DNA from: a virus
Lineage: Duplodnaviria > Heunggongvirae > Uroviricota > Caudoviricetes
Virus record (IMG/VR): IMGVR_UViG_2740892431_000022
DNA: 35,244 bases
Direction: 5' to 3' (one strand)
Both the position numbers and the translations under genes were made by a program. This document shows positions 1,781-10,211 of this stretch, piece after piece (positions within the stretch are counted from its first letter, which is position 1; every line of letters begins with the position of its first letter). The notes beneath the pieces are model-generated. The model had not been told where the DNA came from. It ran no database searches and worked only from the letters and a program-made list of their open reading frames with translations.

Positions 1781-1813
1781 CATAAAAAAAGCACGGTAAA
1801 GGGTCTACCGTGC
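1781..1813 (-). terminator. Rho-independent terminator downstream of the Mor-like gene
   Basis: On the minus-strand RNA: 8-bp stem GCACGGUA/UACCGUGC (1792-1799 with 1806-1813), 6-nt loop, then a run of 7 U (plus-strand A-run 1785-1791). Confidence 0.7.
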
Positions 1814-1859
1814 TCTTATACAATAAGGAGATTTTTGAAAGGACTTTAACAAGCAGGAA

Positions 1860-2258
1860 TTATCTGGATTTGTTAACGTCTTTCGTCTCCTCTGGCAGAT
1901 CTTCATCAAACAACCTGCCCTGCATCCGATCCAGTTCTTCTTTTCTGACCCGCTTAACCACGCTGTAGACCCACTGAAGCGAAACACCAAAATTGCGGGC
2001 CAGTTCGTGGTGGTTGCGTCCGTTAAACTCCCTGAAGATTTCCCGGTCGCGCTGACTGACCTTCCATACCATGCCCATCGGGAAATAAACGTTTTGCCCG
2101 CCCCAGACCTGCATCATTCGGTTCGCGACGGCCTGACCAATCTGGTCGGCAATTGCGGGCTCAATATCAATAATCTCGCGAACGGTCTCAGAGGTATGCT
2201 GTGCCAGTTCCACCAGGAGTTCCGGCCCTTTACTTCGAAACTGATTCAGGTCGCTCAT
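1860..2258 (-). CDS. mor: Mor/C-family transcriptional activator (middle operon regulator-like)
   Basis: Family signature ...GGQNVYFPMG...RDREIFREFNGRNHHELARNFGVSLQWVYSVVKRVR; GGGAG ribosome-binding site upstream; last gene of the early operon. Confidence 0.88.
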   Translation of the reverse strand: MSDLNQFRSKGPELLVELAQHTSETVREIIDIEPAIADQIGQAVANRMMQVWGGQNVYFPMGMVWKVSQRDREIFREFNGRNHHELARNFGVSLQWVYSVVKRVRKEELDRMQGRLFDEDLPEETKDVNKSR

Positions 2259-2682
2259 GTTTTACTCCCGCAGCTCTGCGCTGCCACTTCTTCAGTTTCT
2301 CAATAACACTGCTTGCCTGTTCAGTATTGAGCCAGCGCAGGGCGCTGATGCCCGTTTCCCGCTTGATCCACCGCGCTAATGCATTTTCTGAACGGTCACG
2401 AACAATGCCGGCAGCAGCCATTTCAAGCCATAGCGCACGGATTTTCCTGGACTGCGGATGGTTATCCAGCGGTAAACCGGAGCTGGCTTTTCTGGCAGGC
2501 TTAACGCGAAAGCCTTTCCTTTTCATGGATTCCAGCACGCAGTTTAGTTGTGTGGTATCCATTCCTTTGGTTGAGGCTTTACCGGTCAGCCCCTGTAACA
2601 TCTGGCGGTAGGTGTCTTCATCCATACCCAGTTCATTACGGGCAATATGAATGAGCTGGATAAGACGTTGTTTAGTCATCAT
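2230..2682 (-). CDS. gemA: GemA-like protein (Mu gp16 family)
   Basis: MMTKQRLIQLIHIARNELGMDEDTYRQML...KRKGF matches the Mu gp16/GemA pattern; AAAGGAG ribosome-binding site before tandem ATGs at 2682 and 2679. Confidence 0.8.
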   Translation of the reverse strand: MMTKQRLIQLIHIARNELGMDEDTYRQMLQGLTGKASTKGMDTTQLNCVLESMKRKGFRVKPARKASSGLPLDNHPQSRKIRALWLEMAAAGIVRDRSENALARWIKRETGISALRWLNTEQASSVIEKLKKWQRRAAGVKHERPESVSK

Positions 2683-2887
2683 CGTTGCTCCTTTTACCTG
2701 CGCCACCGATATAATCGACATATAAAGGAAGCGCCACAGGCCAGCACAGGAACATCACCGACCAGCTAATCCAGTAGCCGGCACCACTGTAACGTGAATA
2801 AAACCCTGAACGGCGGTGCAGTTCAGCAGTACACCAACCGACAAAACAATACCAGAACAGGGCACATACAACAGATTCAGCCGTCAT
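2672..2887 (-). CDS. Small hydrophobic protein (71 aa)
   Basis: Internal ATG at 2887 of ORF 2672..3043, preceded by GGGGGGA; hydrophobic core VVCALFWYCFVGW / WISWSVMFLCWPVALPLYV. Confidence 0.4.
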   Translation of the reverse strand: MTAESVVCALFWYCFVGWCTAELHRRSGFYSRYSGAGYWISWSVMFLCWPVALPLYVDYIGGAGKRSNDDD

Positions 2888-3107
2888 TCTGAATATCCCC
2901 CCAACTGATATGAATATTACGGGCAGCAATGACAGGGTCGTTATTCCACCATGCACCTGACATGTATTTTTCAACCTGTTCGCGTCCGGCAATAACACCA
3001 ATTGTGATCCCCGGCCTGACGTTCTTAAAAAAGGCGCGGGCAAAAAGGTATCTGGCAGATATTCGGCAGGCTTTTAATTTCCGGCTGTTACCTGATAGCG
3101 TAATCAT
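2877..3107 (-). CDS. Hypothetical early protein (76 aa)
   Basis: ATG overlaps the stop of the upstream gene in an ATGA arrangement (3104-3107), suggesting translational coupling. Confidence 0.45.
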   Translation of the reverse strand: MITLSGNSRKLKACRISARYLFARAFFKNVRPGITIGVIAGREQVEKYMSGAWWNNDPVIAARNIHISWGDIQNDG

Positions 3108-3787
3108 CTGGCCTCCAGTTTCTGTTGTTCCTGCCCACTGACCGGGCGGTGCAGTCTGACGTTCTGCCCTTCACGAAACCCCGCATAGCGCGAGGCGTCG
3201 CCATTGCGGCTTCTTCCCGGTTTACGCGCCCTGGTGGTTTGCGTCTGCGGGTATTTATGTTCCAGCCACTGCTGCATCAGTTCACGCTCATCATCGGTCA
3301 GGGCAAAGGACTGTATTTCACTGATAACGGCCAGCACCCAGCCTTCGGCAAACTGGTCTCCACGGCTGGTGCGGGTGGCGGTTTTTATTCTTTTGTTCTG
3401 TGCACTGATATACTGCTGACGCGCCTTTTTCAGCTGACGGGCCAGCACTTCCCAGGTGTATGCAGCCAGTGCCGCACGTTCCCGGTTGCCGTAGAACCCC
3501 ACAGACGGGTGCGTGCCGGGGTGAATGATGGAGTTAACACCAAATACCTCGCGGATGATGTTCATCAGGCCCAGCATGTAGCGCGGTGGACGGAGACTGC
3601 CTGTCGGCCAGTAGTGACTGATGGTTTCATCAATATCACTCATAGCAATGTCGGAATGTGTGATGCCGTGAACATCCATCAGTTTACGGGCTCGGCGCAG
3701 TGCCAGAGCGGCCTCGTGCGGGTTGCCGGATGCGGCCAGCGCCAGCAACTTTTTCAGTTTCTCAATGTGTTTATTCTGGTCTGTCAT
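3104..3787 (-). CDS. Early protein with a DUF2786-like N-terminal motif
   Basis: KLKKLLALAASGNPHEAALALRRARKLM motif; start placed at the ATG at 3787 (MTDQNK...), which overlaps the stop of the 3784..3999 gene as ATGA; alternative start at 3823. Confidence 0.65.
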   Translation of the reverse strand: MTDQNKHIEKLKKLLALAASGNPHEAALALRRARKLMDVHGITHSDIAMSDIDETISHYWPTGSLRPPRYMLGLMNIIREVFGVNSIIHPGTHPSVGFYGNRERAALAAYTWEVLARQLKKARQQYISAQNKRIKTATRTSRGDQFAEGWVLAVISEIQSFALTDDERELMQQWLEHKYPQTQTTRARKPGRSRNGDASRYAGFREGQNVRLHRPVSGQEQQKLEAR

Positions 3788-3999
3788 TGTTCTGTATCTC
3801 CGGTATTTTTCTGCCGTTTCCATGCCCGGACAGCGTCGGACAGCTCTTTCAGGCTGTATGCTGCTTTAAGCTTTTCCCATAACCACTGTGTTGTTATGTG
3901 CATCAGCAGGGCAGCCAGGGCTGCCCCCGCACTGAGGCATGTCGCCAGGCCAGTAAGAATCAGTGTCCATGCGGTGATTTCCCTGAGTATGTCAGCCAT
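3784..3999 (-). CDS. Small membrane protein (71 aa)
   Basis: GGGAGG ribosome-binding site 5 nt before the ATG at 3999; one predicted TM helix (WTLILTGLATCLSAGAALAALLM). Confidence 0.55.
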   Translation of the reverse strand: MADILREITAWTLILTGLATCLSAGAALAALLMHITTQWLWEKLKAAYSLKELSDAVRAWKRQKNTGDTEQ

Positions 4000-4013
4000 T
4001 GAATGCCTCCCGG

Positions 4014-4310
4014 TTACTCGTTCGTGTAAATCACGCCCAGTCGTGCAGCCAGACGTTCCAGTTTTTTCTGTTTGTGGAAGTCAATCAGCCGGTCCATCCC
4101 CTGAAGGCGCAGTTGCTCTGTCATGATTTCCACGTCTGCCAGCTCTGCCGCGAGGTCACTTTCGCTGCCCTGTCCGTTCAGGTTGCGGGCGGCACTGGCC
4201 GCCAGTTCAGCGGCCTCTTCTGCCAGTTTCAGGGCCTGTGCGTCCGGCCCGAAACGCTGCAGGGCCAGACGGTAGAGGGCGGTGCGGGTGAGTTCGGTGT
4301 TTCGTGTCAT
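4014..4310 (-). CDS. MazG-like nucleotide pyrophosphohydrolase domain protein (98 aa)
   Basis: EEAAELA...ELADV acidic motif pattern typical of the MazG/HisE all-alpha NTP pyrophosphatase fold; GAGGG ribosome-binding site. Confidence 0.55.
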   Translation of the reverse strand: MTRNTELTRTALYRLALQRFGPDAQALKLAEEAAELAASAARNLNGQGSESDLAAELADVEIMTEQLRLQGMDRLIDFHKQKKLERLAARLGVIYTNE

Positions 4311-4319
4311 GCCGCGCCC

Positions 4320-4592
4320 TCAGTGCTTCCGGCTGACGGTGATGTGCAGGCCGCCTTCTGCAGTGGTTTCCATCCGGTACGGCACCTCATGCTCTGCCGT
4401 GTGGGTGAGTGTGTTCATCAGTACCTGCAGGGCAGCCTCCTTTCCGTTGGTCGCCACAATGGCCTGTGTGGCCATGCTGATTAGCGCCGTCAGGACGTGA
4501 TTCACATCGGTGAGGTCGCGGCATTCACACTCGTTGACATAGTGTTCAACAAGGGTTCGGGTGCGCTGTCGTGCTTCCTGTGGGGTAATCAT
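4320..4592 (-). CDS. Hypothetical early protein (90 aa)
   Basis: GGGAGG ribosome-binding site; ATGA overlap with the stop of the upstream Zn-ribbon gene. Confidence 0.6.
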   Translation of the reverse strand: MITPQEARQRTRTLVEHYVNECECRDLTDVNHVLTALISMATQAIVATNGKEAALQVLMNTLTHTAEHEVPYRMETTAEGGLHITVSRKH

Positions 4593-4783
4593 TGCGCGTC
4601 CTCCCTGTCAGGGCGGGAGAATTCCATGACGGGCACGTCCGCCGAAAAATGCTGGCTGCAGTACGGGCAGACCAGGGTGACACGTACTGCAGGTATGTGA
4701 TACTTACCGGACATCACGGCGATGGCGCTGTGAAAACGCAGGGCTGTTATATCCCTCTCGCACTGAATACATTTAAATATCAT
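4589..4783 (-). CDS. Zn-ribbon protein (CxxC...CxxC, 64 aa)
   Basis: Cys pairs at residues 5/8 and 39/42 (CIQC ... CPYC); GAGGAG ribosome-binding site. Confidence 0.6.
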   Translation of the reverse strand: MIFKCIQCERDITALRFHSAIAVMSGKYHIPAVRVTLVCPYCSQHFSADVPVMEFSRPDREDAQ

Positions 4784-4880
4784 AATTTAATTCTCCTCTG
4801 TTTCCGGCGTGCAGAAGCCCACGGCGCTGACGCCGGAATAAAAAAGAAAATGTTTTTATTAAATAATTAACGTGGTGTGT

Positions 4881-5411
4881 TTACTGCACATCCTGCTCAA
4901 AAGGAATTATTGAAAAATCCTCAATGTCGCTTTTAATGGAAATACCGGGAATATTTTTCACGGCCTCTTTTTCATTCAGAATGGCATCTTTATTTATTTC
5001 CTCCTTTACACGAATAAAGCGCTCAAGCCCCAGACGTCTCAGCAGTTCAATGACATTATCCGCCCCGCGAATGCTGACTGACGGCGGACGGTTTCGCCAC
5101 TGCACCTCGCCGGTGGTGAGGTTAGCGAACTTCACCTTCCCGTTGCCGGTCAGTTCATCACGGTGCGCCTCACACCATGTCTGGATACCGGACTGCAGTT
5201 CGGCCATGCGTTTTTTCAGGCTCTCGGTGAGCGGGGCATAACGTGCAGTGATGTCGCCAATGGTGTCATTCATTTCTGTTTCAGCCCTGACCAGTTCACG
5301 TTGCGCGTCACCAAGCAGTCTGATTCCCTCAATGACCTCTTCGCGTGTCCCCGGCACCCAGAGTGCTGCTGCGGCTTTGATACGTTTTGCCCCTTTTGTA
5401 CTTTTTGCCAT
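4881..5411 (-). CDS. gam: Host-nuclease inhibitor Gam (Mu Gam family)
   Basis: MAKSTKGAKRIKAAAA...WCEAHRDELTGNGKVKFANLTTGEVQWRNRPPSVSIRG...FIRVKEEINKDAIL...EDFSIIPFEQ closely follows my recollection of Mu Gam. Confidence 0.88.
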   Translation of the reverse strand: MAKSTKGAKRIKAAAALWVPGTREEVIEGIRLLGDAQRELVRAETEMNDTIGDITARYAPLTESLKKRMAELQSGIQTWCEAHRDELTGNGKVKFANLTTGEVQWRNRPPSVSIRGADNVIELLRRLGLERFIRVKEEINKDAILNEKEAVKNIPGISIKSDIEDFSIIPFEQDVQ

Positions 5412-5438
5412 ATTTTATGACTCCTCCTGTTGTGCTGA

Positions 5439-5708
5439 TTACCACAAAGATTCCGGCCACACGACGCGACAGCCGTGCAGTTCGAAAACGCCCTGACGGA
5501 AATATCCCCTGTGGTCATGTCCGGTATACAGATAACAGGCCTTTCCCTGCTCAAGCATGCGCATGCAATGCGCACTCCGGGAAACGCGGATGACAGGTTT
5601 GTTACCCCTGATGGTGATGCTTTGTACATCCGTGTTCGTCGCCTTAAGCGCCATAATGGCTGACTGCACTTTGCTGATTTGCTGGTTGATACCTGTGGTG
5701 GATTTCAT
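5439..5708 (-). CDS. Hypothetical early protein (89 aa); positional analogue of the Mu kil/cim region
   Basis: AAAGGGG ribosome-binding site; start abuts the stop of B; no family recognised. Confidence 0.55.
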   Translation of the reverse strand: MKSTTGINQQISKVQSAIMALKATNTDVQSITIRGNKPVIRVSRSAHCMRMLEQGKACYLYTGHDHRGYFRQGVFELHGCRVVWPESLW

Positions 5709-5710
5709 TA

Positions 5711-6877
5711 TTAAACCCCTTTGACAACGTCAGCGTTGACCTGTGGAACCCCGATTTCAGCGGCCAGATTCATGGCGGCTATCACCAGGTTACTGACGGC
5801 CAGCGGATACAGCAGGCTGACCATATTTTTACGATGACTTCCCGGATTGCTCAGGCGGGCACGTATGGCATCCACTGCGCTGGCGTCCATAATGTCCGTC
5901 AGTTGTTTACCGGCCCGTTGCAGTTTGAACGTCAGAAATTCTTCAAGGTTATTGTCCAGAGGCAGAAGTTCGACCACCTCACAACGCTGAACGACTTCAC
6001 GGACTTCCATATTGCGTTCAGACAGTTTTGTCGCCAGTTCCGGCTGGCCAATCAGCACGATGGACAGCAGTTTTTTGAAACCGGACTCCAGCTCAAAAAA
6101 GCGTTTGAGGTGTTTCAGTGTCGGAATGGGCAGACTGTGGGCCTCCTCAATCACCAAAACGTGGCTGAACCCCGCCTGGCTGCTGTCTTTCAGGACGCGA
6201 TGCAACTGGCGAAAGCGGGCGTCCTGACTGCGTCTGATGCTTTCCAGTGGTGCGATGGTACTGATAATGGCTTCGGCAATCGCTGCTGCCTTCAGGGTTT
6301 TCCCTTTCACATCGTTGTCTTCCATAGCGATGATGTATGGCTCGATAACAATTACCGGCGCATTCTCGCGGTTGATACGTTCAGTCAGGTCGCGGCGCAG
6401 CGTGGATTTACCCGCACCGGACTCACCGATGACGGCCATAAACCCACCATGACGGGCTGTCTGGTACAACGCCTCACGCACGTAGCGAATGTCCGGGGTG
6501 GTGAACACATCATCAGAACCCTGCATGGCTTCATCGGCGAACGGGTCACGGAAAAGACCAAACGCTTTTTTGGTTGCTGGAAATAACACCTGTTTTTTGA
6601 GTAACATATTCTCTTCCTCACTGAGGCTCGTTTTATCTGTGGTACCCGCTGTACGGGGCGTGGCTGCGCCCTGTACAGCATCAAAACTCTTCGTTGTATC
6701 AATCCCCTGACTTTCCAGCCAGGACGCAAGACGCCGGCGCACTTCTCCGGGGCTGGTGCGGGGCCACGCGTTATGATTCACAATCTGGGCCAGCGTGGCC
6801 TCAGAAACATCGACAGCTCTCGCCACCACCGCCTGTGGGATACGGGCCTCTTTCAGTTGCTGCTTCAGTACCAGCAT
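5711..6877 (-). CDS. Transposition ATPase B (MuB-like AAA+ protein)
   Basis: N-terminal HTH-like segment, Walker A GESGAGKST, Walker B-like VLVIEEAH; start placed at the ATG at 6877 with a strong GAGGAGGAA ribosome-binding site (ORF extends to 6916). Confidence 0.88.
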   Translation of the reverse strand: MLVLKQQLKEARIPQAVVARAVDVSEATLAQIVNHNAWPRTSPGEVRRRLASWLESQGIDTTKSFDAVQGAATPRTAGTTDKTSLSEEENMLLKKQVLFPATKKAFGLFRDPFADEAMQGSDDVFTTPDIRYVREALYQTARHGGFMAVIGESGAGKSTLRRDLTERINRENAPVIVIEPYIIAMEDNDVKGKTLKAAAIAEAIISTIAPLESIRRSQDARFRQLHRVLKDSSQAGFSHVLVIEEAHSLPIPTLKHLKRFFELESGFKKLLSIVLIGQPELATKLSERNMEVREVVQRCEVVELLPLDNNLEEFLTFKLQRAGKQLTDIMDASAVDAIRARLSNPGSHRKNMVSLLYPLAVSNLVIAAMNLAAEIGVPQVNADVVKGV

Positions 6878-6887
6878 GTTTTCCTCC

Positions 6888-8657
6888 TCAGTTGCCGTTA
6901 ACAATGCTGATAACACTGCTGCGTGCCGGCGTGGTCAGCGTGGCCATGACTTCATCCAGTGCAGCTTCCGGTACGCCGTCCGGGTACTGTGCCGTTAACT
7001 GGCGGTAATGTTCCGGCGTCCAGGTAAGGCCGTCGGCGCTGAACTTATCGCGCAGGGCTTTCGCGGCCTCCACATGAGTCATGGGACGTTGTTCAGTGCG
7101 CGGCCCGCGTACGTCAGAGGCCTGACCACGCTTCGGCATATAGGCCGGAAGTGTGGTGTCGTCGATATGTTTATACGGGTCAAGCCGCCCGCCGAACGGC
7201 AGCGCCTTCGCCTTGCGTGCGGCGGCTGCATCTGCGGCGTTGTCTGTACCGGTAACCAGCGCTTCAGTTTCTTTTGCCGCCATCTGTGCCGAGGTTTCCG
7301 GCAGGGCTTTGTAACTTTCGCCAAATACCGCCGCGCCTTCAGCAAAGCCAAACTCGTTCTTTCTGACCTCTTCGACCAGGAAGAACGTCTCGTGGCCGTC
7401 CTCACCGGTCAGAACCACCTGTGCCACATCGCTGCGCCATGGGTTACGGGTAATCATCAGTTTTTCACCAACCAGTACGCCCGGTACCGTTGATACGTCA
7501 AATTCAGTGCCCCGGAACGAGACACGAAGTTTTGGCGTGACTTTGCGGAGTTCTGGTGCCGCCACAGCCAGTTCACGACATACCTCAACGGAAGGCGCTT
7601 TTTTCAGCTGCTCAGCAGTAATCTTCAGCCAGATATCCGTGCGGGTTTTACCGTGGCGGCTGTGAACAGCCGTGGCGTTAAAGTGGCTGCGCCATTTCGC
7701 GGCCAGCGCGTTGAGTTCTTCCAGACTGTGAACCGGCCGGAACTTCAGCCCCGGCTCCAGCTTGCGTTCGATAATGTCACGCGCCTTTTCCACCTGTCCG
7801 GTGGCGCGGGCGTTATGCGGCTTGTGCGCTATCAGGTCGATGCCCAGTGAGCGGCACATGTTTTTCGTCATACCCGCGGTGTTTGCCGAGCCGGGGTCGA
7901 GATAGAGTATTTTCGGCACGCCGTGCAGCACGTCTGCGCCGCCACGCTCCTGCATGGCGTTGATAAGCACAGAACACAGGTTCTCACCTGATTCCGCGCC
8001 CGTCACATACTCAACGTAAATCCAGCCGCTGGCATGGTCGGTAATCTCGTAACTCCACACGCGGTCACTGGCGATACGGGCAAGGTTAGCGGGCTTGTTC
8101 TTGTAGAACTTCGCGCTGTCCATCACCTGCAGCCCTTTATGTCCATTGCTCAGGTAGTAAAGCGTGCAGAGTGAGGCGTCAATCTGCCAGACATGATTGG
8201 GATGCAGACTGGCCACTTCGGTATGTGGTGCAGGGGCATCCAGTTGTTCCGGGTGCAGGCCATAGTTACGCAGAGCACGGCTGATGGCATCTTCAGACAA
8301 CGGGAAAAACTCACTGGTGGTTTCATCTGTTCTGCCTGCGGTGATAAAGCCGTTAGCCCGCAGGGTTTCCACTGCATCTGCGATGGAATAGAGACGCTTA
8401 CCGTTCTTGCGGGTGGCCTCACGCAGTGTGGCAGATATCAGCGCGGCTTCGTCGCGGGTCAGGGCGCTGCGCCCGGCATCGGCGCGTTTTTTGCGTTTAT
8501 CAGTCACAGAGACCTCCTTCAGCCTGCGCAGCAGAGTGGCGCGGGACATGCCAAGTTCAGCACAGGCAGCGTCGTATATTGCACCGCGTTTACCATGCCC
8601 CGCGTCACGTGCCGCGCGGGCGACATAAACCAGTCGTTCAGTCAGGGCAGCATTCAT
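6888..8657 (-). CDS. Mu-type DDE transposase A
   Basis: 589 aa; N-terminal DNA-binding region, central rve-like core (...HVWQIDAS..., ...LYLDPGSANTAG...) and C-terminal region; GGAGG ribosome-binding site; immediately upstream of B. Confidence 0.92.
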   Translation of the reverse strand: MNAALTERLVYVARAARDAGHGKRGAIYDAACAELGMSRATLLRRLKEVSVTDKRKKRADAGRSALTRDEAALISATLREATRKNGKRLYSIADAVETLRANGFITAGRTDETTSEFFPLSEDAISRALRNYGLHPEQLDAPAPHTEVASLHPNHVWQIDASLCTLYYLSNGHKGLQVMDSAKFYKNKPANLARIASDRVWSYEITDHASGWIYVEYVTGAESGENLCSVLINAMQERGGADVLHGVPKILYLDPGSANTAGMTKNMCRSLGIDLIAHKPHNARATGQVEKARDIIERKLEPGLKFRPVHSLEELNALAAKWRSHFNATAVHSRHGKTRTDIWLKITAEQLKKAPSVEVCRELAVAAPELRKVTPKLRVSFRGTEFDVSTVPGVLVGEKLMITRNPWRSDVAQVVLTGEDGHETFFLVEEVRKNEFGFAEGAAVFGESYKALPETSAQMAAKETEALVTGTDNAADAAAARKAKALPFGGRLDPYKHIDDTTLPAYMPKRGQASDVRGPRTEQRPMTHVEAAKALRDKFSADGLTWTPEHYRQLTAQYPDGVPEAALDEVMATLTTPARSSVISIVNGN

Positions 8658-8660
8658 TGG

Positions 8661-9575
8661 TTATGCCTCCAGCCCGTTAATCTGTGGCGTCGGCTCAGTC
8701 AGCCATGAAGGCGCTGCATTGCCTGTTGGCTCGTCCGGCAGGTCAAATGTGGAGCGCAGGCTACGCGCTGTGCTTTCCAGTTGACAGACCAGGCCTGCCA
8801 TGAAGTCTCTGGGGGTATCAATCATGTTTTCAGCACAATATGCGCACAGCGTCTCAAAAGCGCTGGACAGTCGGACGGCGATAGCAGATTCCGCCTCAAC
8901 CGCTAATGCTGTTACTTCCGCCCGCAGCTTCTTAACCTCCTCATCAGGCTCAGGCGGCTGAATACGGGATTTCTTCTCCAGTCTGGTGGAGAGTGAATCT
9001 ATTTTTTCATTTTTGTCGGCGAGTACGCGCTGTTGTGCTGCGTTGGTTTCGCGCGCTTCGCGCAGGGCCTGACGCAATTCACGTACTGACATGCGATCAA
9101 CGTCGTCAAGCGTCAGGCCGGCAACTGTGCCGCCGTCGGCCAATTCATCAAGTTCTTCATTATCCAGAACCATCAGGTCGTACAGTTTGGCTTTCCCCAA
9201 AACGCTCAACGTTGAGCGTTTTGTTGGCTCATCACCTTCTCCCAAAAACTTCATACTGGCTTGCATCATGCGGCGAGCAACTTGTGGTGCAAGTCCGAGT
9301 TCATTTTCTAAAATGTTTGTAAAATCACCGTGTGGCTCATTTTCTTTTAAGATGATCAGCCGCTTACCCGCTTCCAGCATAGATTCAGCACTCTGCGCCA
9401 TATAAAAACGTGCTTCGTGAACAATGCGATCACGTTCATAAGGCAGTCCATCACCAAACTGCTGCATAATTTCCATGCGATGCTGTGTCATAGCGTTCAA
9501 ATTGACATTGATGTTATCTGACAGCGGAACCTCAACATTCAGTTCAGTGTTAACGGGTGATTTGGTGCGTCCCAT
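8661..9575 (-). CDS. Early protein, acidic with a predicted coiled coil (304 aa), function unknown
   Basis: AAGGAG ribosome-binding site; lies between the regulators and A; no confident family assignment. Confidence 0.7.
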   Translation of the reverse strand: MGRTKSPVNTELNVEVPLSDNINVNLNAMTQHRMEIMQQFGDGLPYERDRIVHEARFYMAQSAESMLEAGKRLIILKENEPHGDFTNILENELGLAPQVARRMMQASMKFLGEGDEPTKRSTLSVLGKAKLYDLMVLDNEELDELADGGTVAGLTLDDVDRMSVRELRQALREARETNAAQQRVLADKNEKIDSLSTRLEKKSRIQPPEPDEEVKKLRAEVTALAVEAESAIAVRLSSAFETLCAYCAENMIDTPRDFMAGLVCQLESTARSLRSTFDLPDEPTGNAAPSWLTEPTPQINGLEA

Positions 9576-9585
9576 TGATTACTCC

Positions 9586-9894
9586 TTACAAACGACTACC
9601 TGAAATAACTCGTTGGTTGATTTCGTTAATACGATCCTGTGCACGCGCCATCTCGTGACTGTGAGCCATGGCGATCTGTAGTAACTGGATTCCCGGTGCG
9701 AAACGTCCGTTCTCTAATTTCATGGCCAGTCCCTCTTCAATAAGGGTATTAAGTGCTCGATTGATATTCGCCGGGGACTCCCCCAGGGCTGATGCCAGTT
9801 CACCGTTAGAAACACCGTTCAGAGCATGACCGCGTAGAGCTTTGAGTACACGTAGGATGCGGGTCCCAGAACTGGAAATATTTACTTTACTCAT
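9586..9894 (-). CDS. Winged-helix (IclR/MarR-like) DNA-binding protein
   Basis: ...SGTRILRVLKALRGHALNGVSNGELASALGESPANINRALNTLIEEGL... resembles a wHTH; start at 9894 (MSKVN...) preferred over 9957; neither start has a strong ribosome-binding site. Confidence 0.55.
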   Translation of the reverse strand: MSKVNISSSGTRILRVLKALRGHALNGVSNGELASALGESPANINRALNTLIEEGLAMKLENGRFAPGIQLLQIAMAHSHEMARAQDRINEINQRVISGSRL

Positions 9895-9910
9895 GTCACA
9901 TTTCCATTTT

Positions 9911-9941
9911 TGCAATATGTGATAACCTGTTGCATATGTGG
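9911..9941. promoter_or_regulatory. Direct repeats TGCAATATGTG (9911-9921) and TGCATATGTGG (9931-9941), spaced 20 bp
   Basis: Related copies at 10154-10163 (TGCAATGATG) and 10172-10181 (ATATGTGATA) in the divergent promoter region. Confidence 0.35.
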
Positions 9942-9946
9942 AAAAT

Positions 9947-10135
9947 TTATGCCGCATTTGACGTGGGTTTTAATCCCAGTTTTACGGCAATTTCATGGGC
10001 TTTGCCGTAACGAGCTTTGGTCTGTCCATTGAGAACACGATAGACCTCATTGCGGCTGTAGCCGTGTTCTTCGGCCCAGCGGGTAAACGTGATACCACGC
10101 TGACGGAAGAGATTTTTAACTTGTTCGGAAGTCAT
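9947..10135 (-). CDS. ner: Ner-like DNA-binding protein (Ner/Nlp family)
   Basis: 62 aa; ...FTRWAEEHGYSRNEVYRVL...GKAHEIAVKLGLKP parallels the Mu Ner HTH and C-terminal segment; AAAGGAGA ribosome-binding site; first gene of the leftward operon. Confidence 0.75.
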   Translation of the reverse strand: MTSEQVKNLFRQRGITFTRWAEEHGYSRNEVYRVLNGQTKARYGKAHEIAVKLGLKPTSNAA

Positions 10136-10182
10136 TGTTGTCTCCTTTGTTGATGCAATGATGTTTGTTTTATATGTGATAG

Positions 10183-10211
10183 ATTATGAGAACTATTGTT
10201 CTCATTGTCAA
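10183..10211 (-). promoter_or_regulatory. Early promoter Pe (minus strand): -35 TTGACA, 17-bp spacer, -10 CATAAT
   Basis: Reverse complement of 10206-10211 is TTGACA and of 10183-10188 is CATAAT; about 45 nt upstream of the ner-like ATG. Confidence 0.6.

Follow-up and report, generated by a model that had tools for sequence, protein, structure and literature searches.

In Mtb MazG, Mg2+ is bound by the tetrad E119/E122/E138/D141, and the C. jejuni dUTPase has the tetrad E46/E49/E74/D77 together with Lys and Arg residues that hold the substrate (PMC10014863). Phage-encoded precedents for activity on (p)ppGpp point in both directions. Atd1 of Pectobacterium phage PcCB7V is a single-domain MazG-like protein that dephosphorylates ppGpp with an apparent Km of ~50 uM, depletes (p)ppGpp, and protects against TIR-STING toxicity (bioRxiv 10.1101/2022.06.09.495361). 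In contrast, the MazG of cyanophage S-PM2 neither binds nor hydrolyzes (p)ppGpp and prefers dGTP and dCTP, and cyanophage MazG has been proposed to tune the nucleotide pool to the needs of phage replication (PMC6850273).

Canonical MazG proteins (PF03819) are marked by the motifs GCPWD and RHPHVF, which flank the catalytic helices and are both found in all canonical MazG sequences that we aligned. The MazG of E. coli (PDB 3cra) has 263 amino acids and two domains, whereas that of Vibrio phage vB_VcorM_GR7B is an example of a canonical phage MazG with a single domain. Structures have also been solved for MazG-like proteins of only ~90–115 aa: S. solfataricus SSO3215 (1vmg), a MazG conserved in Bacillus (5ie9), B. 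subtilis YpjD (2gta), and the 'hypothetical protein' entries 2q73/2q5z, which we take to be the integron-cassette iMazG of Vibrio.

The gene described here encodes a protein in the same size range. It lies in a 35,244-nucleotide stretch of viral DNA (Caudoviricetes; IMG/VR record IMGVR_UViG_2740892431_000022), the whole of which is referred to below as the window. The ORF consists of 98 codons from ATG to TAA in the window sequence, and is found exactly where the initial annotation had placed it, on the minus strand (no strand had been named). Its full translation is MTRNTELTRTALYRLALQRFGPDAQALKLAEEAAELAASAARNLNGQGSESDLAAELADVEIMTEQLRLQGMDRLIDFHKQKKLERLAARLGVIYTNE, within which the segment LAEEAAELAASAARNLNGQGSESDLAAELADVEIM constitutes the EEAAELA...ELADV pattern that had drawn attention to the gene. 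The Shine-Dalgarno-like GAGGG in front of the ATG (Table 1) overlaps the TGA (4320-4322) that ends the upstream gene (4320-4592), and 14 nt lie between the stop of the 98-aa gene and the downstream gene (3784-3999), which has its own GGGAGG in front. The orthologue in Klebsiella phage KP12 is identical at 66 of 98 residues (67%), and comparison of the two yields pN of 0.195 and pS of 0.612 (dN/dS ~0.18). By these measures the ORF is a translated gene under purifying selection, and we dismissed the idea that it is not a gene on the basis of the dN/dS of 0.18, the ribosome binding site and the homologues. Two plus-strand ORFs (3999-4484 and 4123-4275) overlap the gene. We take these to be by-products because it is the minus-strand frame that has homology, purifying selection and annotation.

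The element that carries the gene is a BcepMu-like transposable prophage of E. coli. This identification follows from the window segment 3000-7000, which is 98.6% identical to Escherichia phage PhiKM (classified in Bcepmuvirus), and from the presence of the segment 3900-4700 in 621 of 5,426 complete E. coli genomes (~11%), where it is always chromosomal. The genes from 9957 down to 1860 are all on the minus strand, bounded by a promoter-like site and a terminator-like hairpin. The transposase and B-like genes are followed by Gam, three genes for small proteins with no assigned function, and the 98-aa gene. Beyond it lie a membrane-like small protein, a DUF2786/DUF7168 protein, two small proteins, GemA and Mor. 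The location in the early operon that was originally proposed is therefore borne out by the company the gene keeps in this run. The KP12 orthologue occupies the same slot between a gam-like gene and gemA/mor, and several of its neighbors differ.

Table 1. Positions in the window of the early operon and of the parts of the 98-aa gene.
Feature	Position	Strand	Basis or location
Early operon, BcepMu-like prophage	1787..10211	(-)	promoter-like site to terminator-like hairpin
Promoter-like site, 11/12 consensus positions	10211-10183	(-)	before gene run
Transposase	6888-8657	(-)	early operon
ExeA/AAA+ B-like protein (B-like ATPase)	5711-6916	(-)	early operon
Gam	4881-5411	(-)	PF07352, E 1.9e-40
Shine-Dalgarno-like GAGGG, 6 nt 5' of ATG	4317..4321	(-)	read from sequence
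CDS, 98 aa, probable small single-domain all-alpha NTP pyrophosphohydrolase (MazG/HisE superfamily)	4014..4310	(-)	ORF, phrog_2245, RefSeq, dN/dS, AlphaFold2, BFVD, hhalign
Codons E31-E32-A-A-E35, first metal-binding motif EExxE (predicted), helix 22-44	4206..4220	(-)	conservation; aligned to canonical MazG EExxE
Codons E56-L-A-D59, second metal-binding motif ExxD (predicted), start of helix 50-91	4134..4145	(-)	conservation; aligned to canonical MazG EELGD
Codons K80-Q-K-K83-L-E-R86, conserved basic patch, C-terminal helix	4053..4073	(-)	conservation; aligned to canonical MazG K-L-x-x-R
GemA	2230-2721	(-)	early operon
Mor	1860-2258	(-)	early operon
Terminator-like hairpin	1817-1787	(-)	end of gene run

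Several neighboring genes have features of their own. The 64-aa protein encoded at 4589-4783 (minus strand, phrog_3401) contains two CxxC pairs, CIQC (residues 5–8) and CPYC (residues 39–42), and looks like a small zinc ribbon from its sequence; its gene overlaps the start of the next by 4 nt. The 71-aa protein encoded directly downstream of the 98-aa gene (3784-3999, minus strand, phrog_3958) has one long hydrophobic stretch, ITAWTLILTGLATCLSAGAALAALLMHI, and is probably a small membrane protein that is expressed early. The largest uncharacterized gene of the early region (3104-3823, minus strand) encodes a 239-aa protein with DUF2786 and DUF7168 domains (phrog_421), and a gene for 128 aa is found at the corresponding position in KP12. 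The KP12 sequence itself (OM835952.1, 'Klebsiella phage KP12 clone KP12_2') is filed under Vequintavirinae, yet its 35 kb contain the transposase, B, gam-like, gemA and mor-like genes of a transposable phage of the BcepMu type; it is probably a co-assembled prophage that was filed under the wrong phage.

The family of the 98-aa protein is already recognized in public resources. The protein matches phrog_2245 ('nucleoside triphosphate pyrophosphohydrolase') over residues 1–97 (E 5.5e-34), covering only positions 113–211 of the 218 in that profile, from which it follows that many members are extended at the N terminus relative to the window protein. Weaker matches are found to phrog_4856 (E 1.3e-4) and to two PHROGs named 'MazG-like pyrophosphatase'. 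The RefSeq entry WP_001295929.1 ('nucleoside triphosphate pyrophosphohydrolase family protein') is identical to the window protein, just as phrog_2245 is the same family, and ST131 is among the E. coli genomes in which it is annotated at the corresponding position. Homologues bear the JGI name 'NTP pyrophosphatase (non-canonical NTP hydrolase)'.

The relationship to known domain families is more distant. No match of the window protein to PF03819 (gathering threshold 22 bits) is obtained at E up to 10, and Pfam and NCBIfam scans of it return sub-threshold PRA-PH/HisE matches only. Five relatives that were scanned singly against PF03819 score 17.8–21.2 bits where the cut-off is 22. Among 61 members of the family, 19 match Pfam families of this group, 14 of them MazG (best E 2.2e-5), three PRA-PH and two MazG-like; unrelated Pfam families are matched once or twice each. 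A precomputed Pfam domain is present in 0 of the 120 best profile matches. When the family profile was compared by hhalign with a PF03819-only alignment of diverse single-domain proteins, a significant alignment was obtained (P 1.1e-4, probability 57%, 73 columns) in which EExxE, ExxD and K..KL.R are all in register. This is the only comparison to give a significant in-register profile-profile alignment. No match is obtained by hhalign to E. coli MazG alone or to an alignment of 79 enterobacterial MazG sequences, and hmmsearch with the family profiles is not significant against the E. coli, Vibrio phage and Staphylococcus phage MazG proteins. GCPWD and RHPHVF are absent from both the window protein and the family consensus, which has its own conserved motifs, YxxAxxxWGxxxQ and ADVEIMxEQ. 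Finally, the family profile has weak matches to five MazG-like PDB entries (5ie9, 2q73, 2q5z, 1vmg and 2gta; E 0.017–0.33), none of which is significant singly. In PDB sequence searches run with the protein itself and with three family profiles, no MazG-like entry scored better than E 0.017.

The best nominal PDB match of the profile is to another protein altogether, the N-terminal domain of a STAS protein (3zta, E 4.7e-4). We rejected this entry, along with matches to designed coiled coils, as helical or compositional similarity because the EExxE motif is missing. Residues 8–73 of 3zta chain A share an IAD-V-IM-Q segment with the family profile and lack EExxE, and the similarity is probably a chance helical likeness.

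Profile support for membership in the all-alpha NTP pyrophosphatase superfamily (MazG, HisE and dimeric dUTPase) is thus moderate rather than overwhelming. Considering all of the evidence, we regard it as very probable that the 98-aa protein belongs there. Our reading is that it represents a distinct subfamily that is captured by no Pfam model, and that it is not a canonical MazG. The MazG/HisE fold named in the initial annotation therefore holds at the level of the superfamily, on the strength of phrog_2245, the RefSeq assignment, the hhalign result and the predicted structure described below. It does not hold for the Pfam MazG family proper, given the sub-threshold scores and the missing match to E. 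coli MazG.

Profile searches show the subfamily to be very large: an exhaustive one recovered 10,443 cluster representatives at E <=1e-3 (1,913 at E <=1e-10), and a second yielded no fewer than 7,941 clusters (90% identity). Most members are 85–110 aa in length, and the closest relatives (65–97% identity) are from Enterobacterales. In an alignment of 103 sequences with 39% mean column identity, the residues G21, Q25, E31, E35, L36, E56, A58, D59, I62, Q66, K83 and L87 are invariant and E32 and R86 reach at least 90% conservation, as does K80 in an alignment of 61 sequences. The pattern EExxE-(12–28)-ExxD is present in 163 of 170 homologue domain sequences. In the window protein it takes the form E32-x-x-E35, 20 residues, and E56-x-x-D59, plus an extra glutamate, E31, and this spacing resembles that of the tetrads in Mtb MazG and C. 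jejuni dUTPase.

Some homologues depart from the typical architecture. Two full-length homologues, P0113 and P0156, are without most of the acidic metal-binding residues (for example AENASKV...ETIADME and AEACNAL...AAAAEVE) and may be inactivated or repurposed. Two others, P0057 (239 aa) and P0052 (209 aa), contain two tandem copies of the small domain, in parallel with the two-domain E. coli MazG. A helical extension of ~65 aa follows the NTP-PPase domain in some enterobacterial homologues of 162–169 aa, including one in Klebsiella phage Kp4866-3 (L090, 4983-5471) and P0012, P0029, P0031 and P0036; the window protein does not have it. Pfam scans of the longer homologues revealed no informative fusion partners, and two of these proteins are the tandem duplications of the same domain.

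The structure predicted by AlphaFold2 from the 103 sequences has a pLDDT of 93.8, and the five models agree (92.9–93.8). It is all-helical, with helices at residues 9–20, 22–44 and 50–91, such that the C-terminal half is one continuous helix. The two helices that bear the motifs are antiparallel and adjacent, as in a helical hairpin with an acidic metal site. In this monomer model E31, E32 and E35 are in the middle of helix 22–44 and E56 and D59 are near the start of helix 50–91, with K80, K83 and R86 further along the latter in a segment that projects past the hairpin. A Foldseek search of the viral models in BFVD gives a best E of 3.3e-4, TM scores of 0.80–0.83 and a probability of 1.0, and the first ten matches are named NTP pyrophosphohydrolase, NTP-PPase-like or putative hydrolase, apart from one unnamed entry. 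Against the PDB, Foldseek gives nothing significant, with E >1 for the small MazG-like entries. Direct superposition on 1vmg aligns 71 residues at 2.6 A with 27% identity. The monomer model, with three helices of which the long one is C-terminal, does not form a closed four-helix bundle, and a complete active site would therefore need oligomerization. The long exposed C-terminal helix of the model suggests oligomerization as well, and by analogy with other MazG-like proteins the enzyme probably works as a dimer or tetramer.

Taken together, we estimate a probability of about 0.7 that the gene encodes a small all-alpha NTP pyrophosphohydrolase of the MazG/HisE superfamily that is active in the following manner. 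The gene would be expressed as part of the prophage's early (transposition/replication) operon. Residues E32, E35, E56 and D59, with the addition of E31, would hold Mg2+ between the two antiparallel helices, and K80, K83 and R86 on the long C-terminal helix would hold the triphosphate. The assignment of these three as triphosphate-binding residues is inferred by analogy with the basic residues of C. jejuni dUTPase (PMC10014863). Attack by water would split an NTP or dNTP into the monophosphate and pyrophosphate, in an active site and helical bundle completed by dimer or tetramer formation. The role of such an enzyme would be to remove or bias certain (d)NTPs, non-canonical or unwanted, during transpositional replication of the phage.

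The substrate is not readable from the sequence, and our literature search found no enzyme assay for any member of the subfamily. Genomic context provides some indication, although it comes from distant relatives (~35–40% identity), none of them from Mu-like phages. One such homologue is flanked by ThyX and a VapE-type primase, with a PD-(D/E)XK nuclease, a single-stranded DNA-binding protein, DNA polymerase A and DNA methylases encoded upstream. Another follows a DUF927 primase, a helicase, a VRR-NUC nuclease, a DNA methylase and a Mom-like protein, and precedes the terminase. This setting among replication and modification genes favors shaping or cleaning of the (d)NTP pool over alarmone hydrolysis, and on such sequence context (d)NTP pool cleaning or biasing appears the likeliest role.

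The alternative is that the protein does not serve to clean the pool and is instead a dedicated hydrolase of a nucleotide used in signaling or immunity, for example (p)ppGpp, (p)ppApp, a viperin ddhNTP or a dITP-type signal. We consider this rather unlikely as a whole. The initial annotation had proposed one form of it, in which alarmones are the substrate and the gene serves host takeover or counter-defense. An enzyme of this kind, similar to Atd1, would break down (p)ppGpp or (p)ppApp soon after the prophage is induced or a cell is infected. It would thereby weaken the stringent response, as well as any abortive infection or toxin activation that depends on alarmones. Atd1 itself is the precedent (bioRxiv 10.1101/2022.06.09.495361). 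As described, it shares with the window protein a phage-encoded MazG-like catalytic domain with twin catalytic motifs, and the gene here is expressed with early genes such as gam, from the accessory early region in which Mu-type phages carry host-interaction genes. However, neither PcCB7V nor Atd1 is among the tblastn matches obtained in the phage collection with the window protein or with E. coli MazG, so that no specific relationship is demonstrable, and the subfamily has no detectable similarity to E. coli MazG. The distant members are embedded among DNA-replication genes, and the MazG of cyanophage S-PM2 is inert on (p)ppGpp and has its preference for dGTP and dCTP (PMC6850273). The latter is likewise a phage-encoded NTP-PPase of the same superfamily, but it is of the canonical bacterial type and horizontally acquired, and its substrate preference is not transferable to the subfamily described here. 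Alarmone hydrolysis or counter-defense is thus possible but unsupported, as nothing in the sequence backs it, and we consider an Atd1-like function unlikely.

A triphosphate immune nucleotide, for example the ddhNTP chain terminators made by viperin or a dITP-type signal, might instead be destroyed by the protein as a counter-defense. The chemistry is suitable because NTP-PPases cleave modified NTPs, the family is very widespread in phages, and viperin products have been raised by others as possible targets of phage MazG-like proteins (PMC12846349). The proposal is nevertheless speculation, and we consider it improbable. A search of the literature found no published MazG-like anti-viperin enzyme, the loci examined contain no linked anti-defense genes of known type, and there is no PADLOC match in a library that consists of defense proteins and not of counter-defense proteins.

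It is also conceivable that the protein is catalytically inert and serves as a helical regulator, adaptor or sponge whose fold is only derived from, or similar to, that of the NTP-PPases. The protein is very small, its model is an open three-helix structure, the PDB searches also match unrelated helical proteins (3zta at E 4.7e-4 and the designed coiled coils), and a few homologues such as P0113 and P0156 have lost their acidic residues. Across 103 sequences as diverse as ~39% mean identity, however, E31, E35, E56 and D59 never vary, E32 is more than 90% conserved, and the full motif is retained in 163 of 170 sequences, which is the pattern expected of a metal site and not of a scaffold. An inert protein is accordingly very improbable. 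We rejected identity with the phosphoribosyl-ATP pyrophosphatase HisE, which is extremely unlikely: both scores fall short of the curated thresholds (PF01503, 15.5 bits for a cut-off of 21.3; TIGR03188, 14.6 for 42.7), family members match MazG more often than PRA-PH (14 vs 3), and all contexts examined are phage regions with no histidine-biosynthesis genes.

A small NTP pyrophosphohydrolase in this position would be an ordinary finding, as both RefSeq and PHROGs already place the protein in this family and phage genomes routinely carry MazG-like genes. If the enzyme is an ordinary cleaner of the dNTP pool, this analysis adds little to a gene that is already labeled correctly. If a signaling or immune nucleotide were the true substrate, the gene would be a common and overlooked factor by which temperate phages counter defenses or take over the host. 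Clinical E. coli, ST131 included, commonly carry the prophage. With more than 10,000 cluster representatives in a phage-associated subfamily, a single substrate screen would provide an annotation for thousands of phage genes and tell whether dNTP pools or alarmones and immune nucleotides are the main target of small phage MazG-like proteins.

Two database records stood out among the matches to E. coli MazG (the pair L009/L055). The MazG encoded on an 'Enterobacter hormaechei' chromosome matches its E. coli K-12 counterpart at 100% identity, and a 'Vagococcus sp.' contig encodes a MazG of enterobacterial type (86% identity). Both records look like mislabeled or contaminated assemblies.
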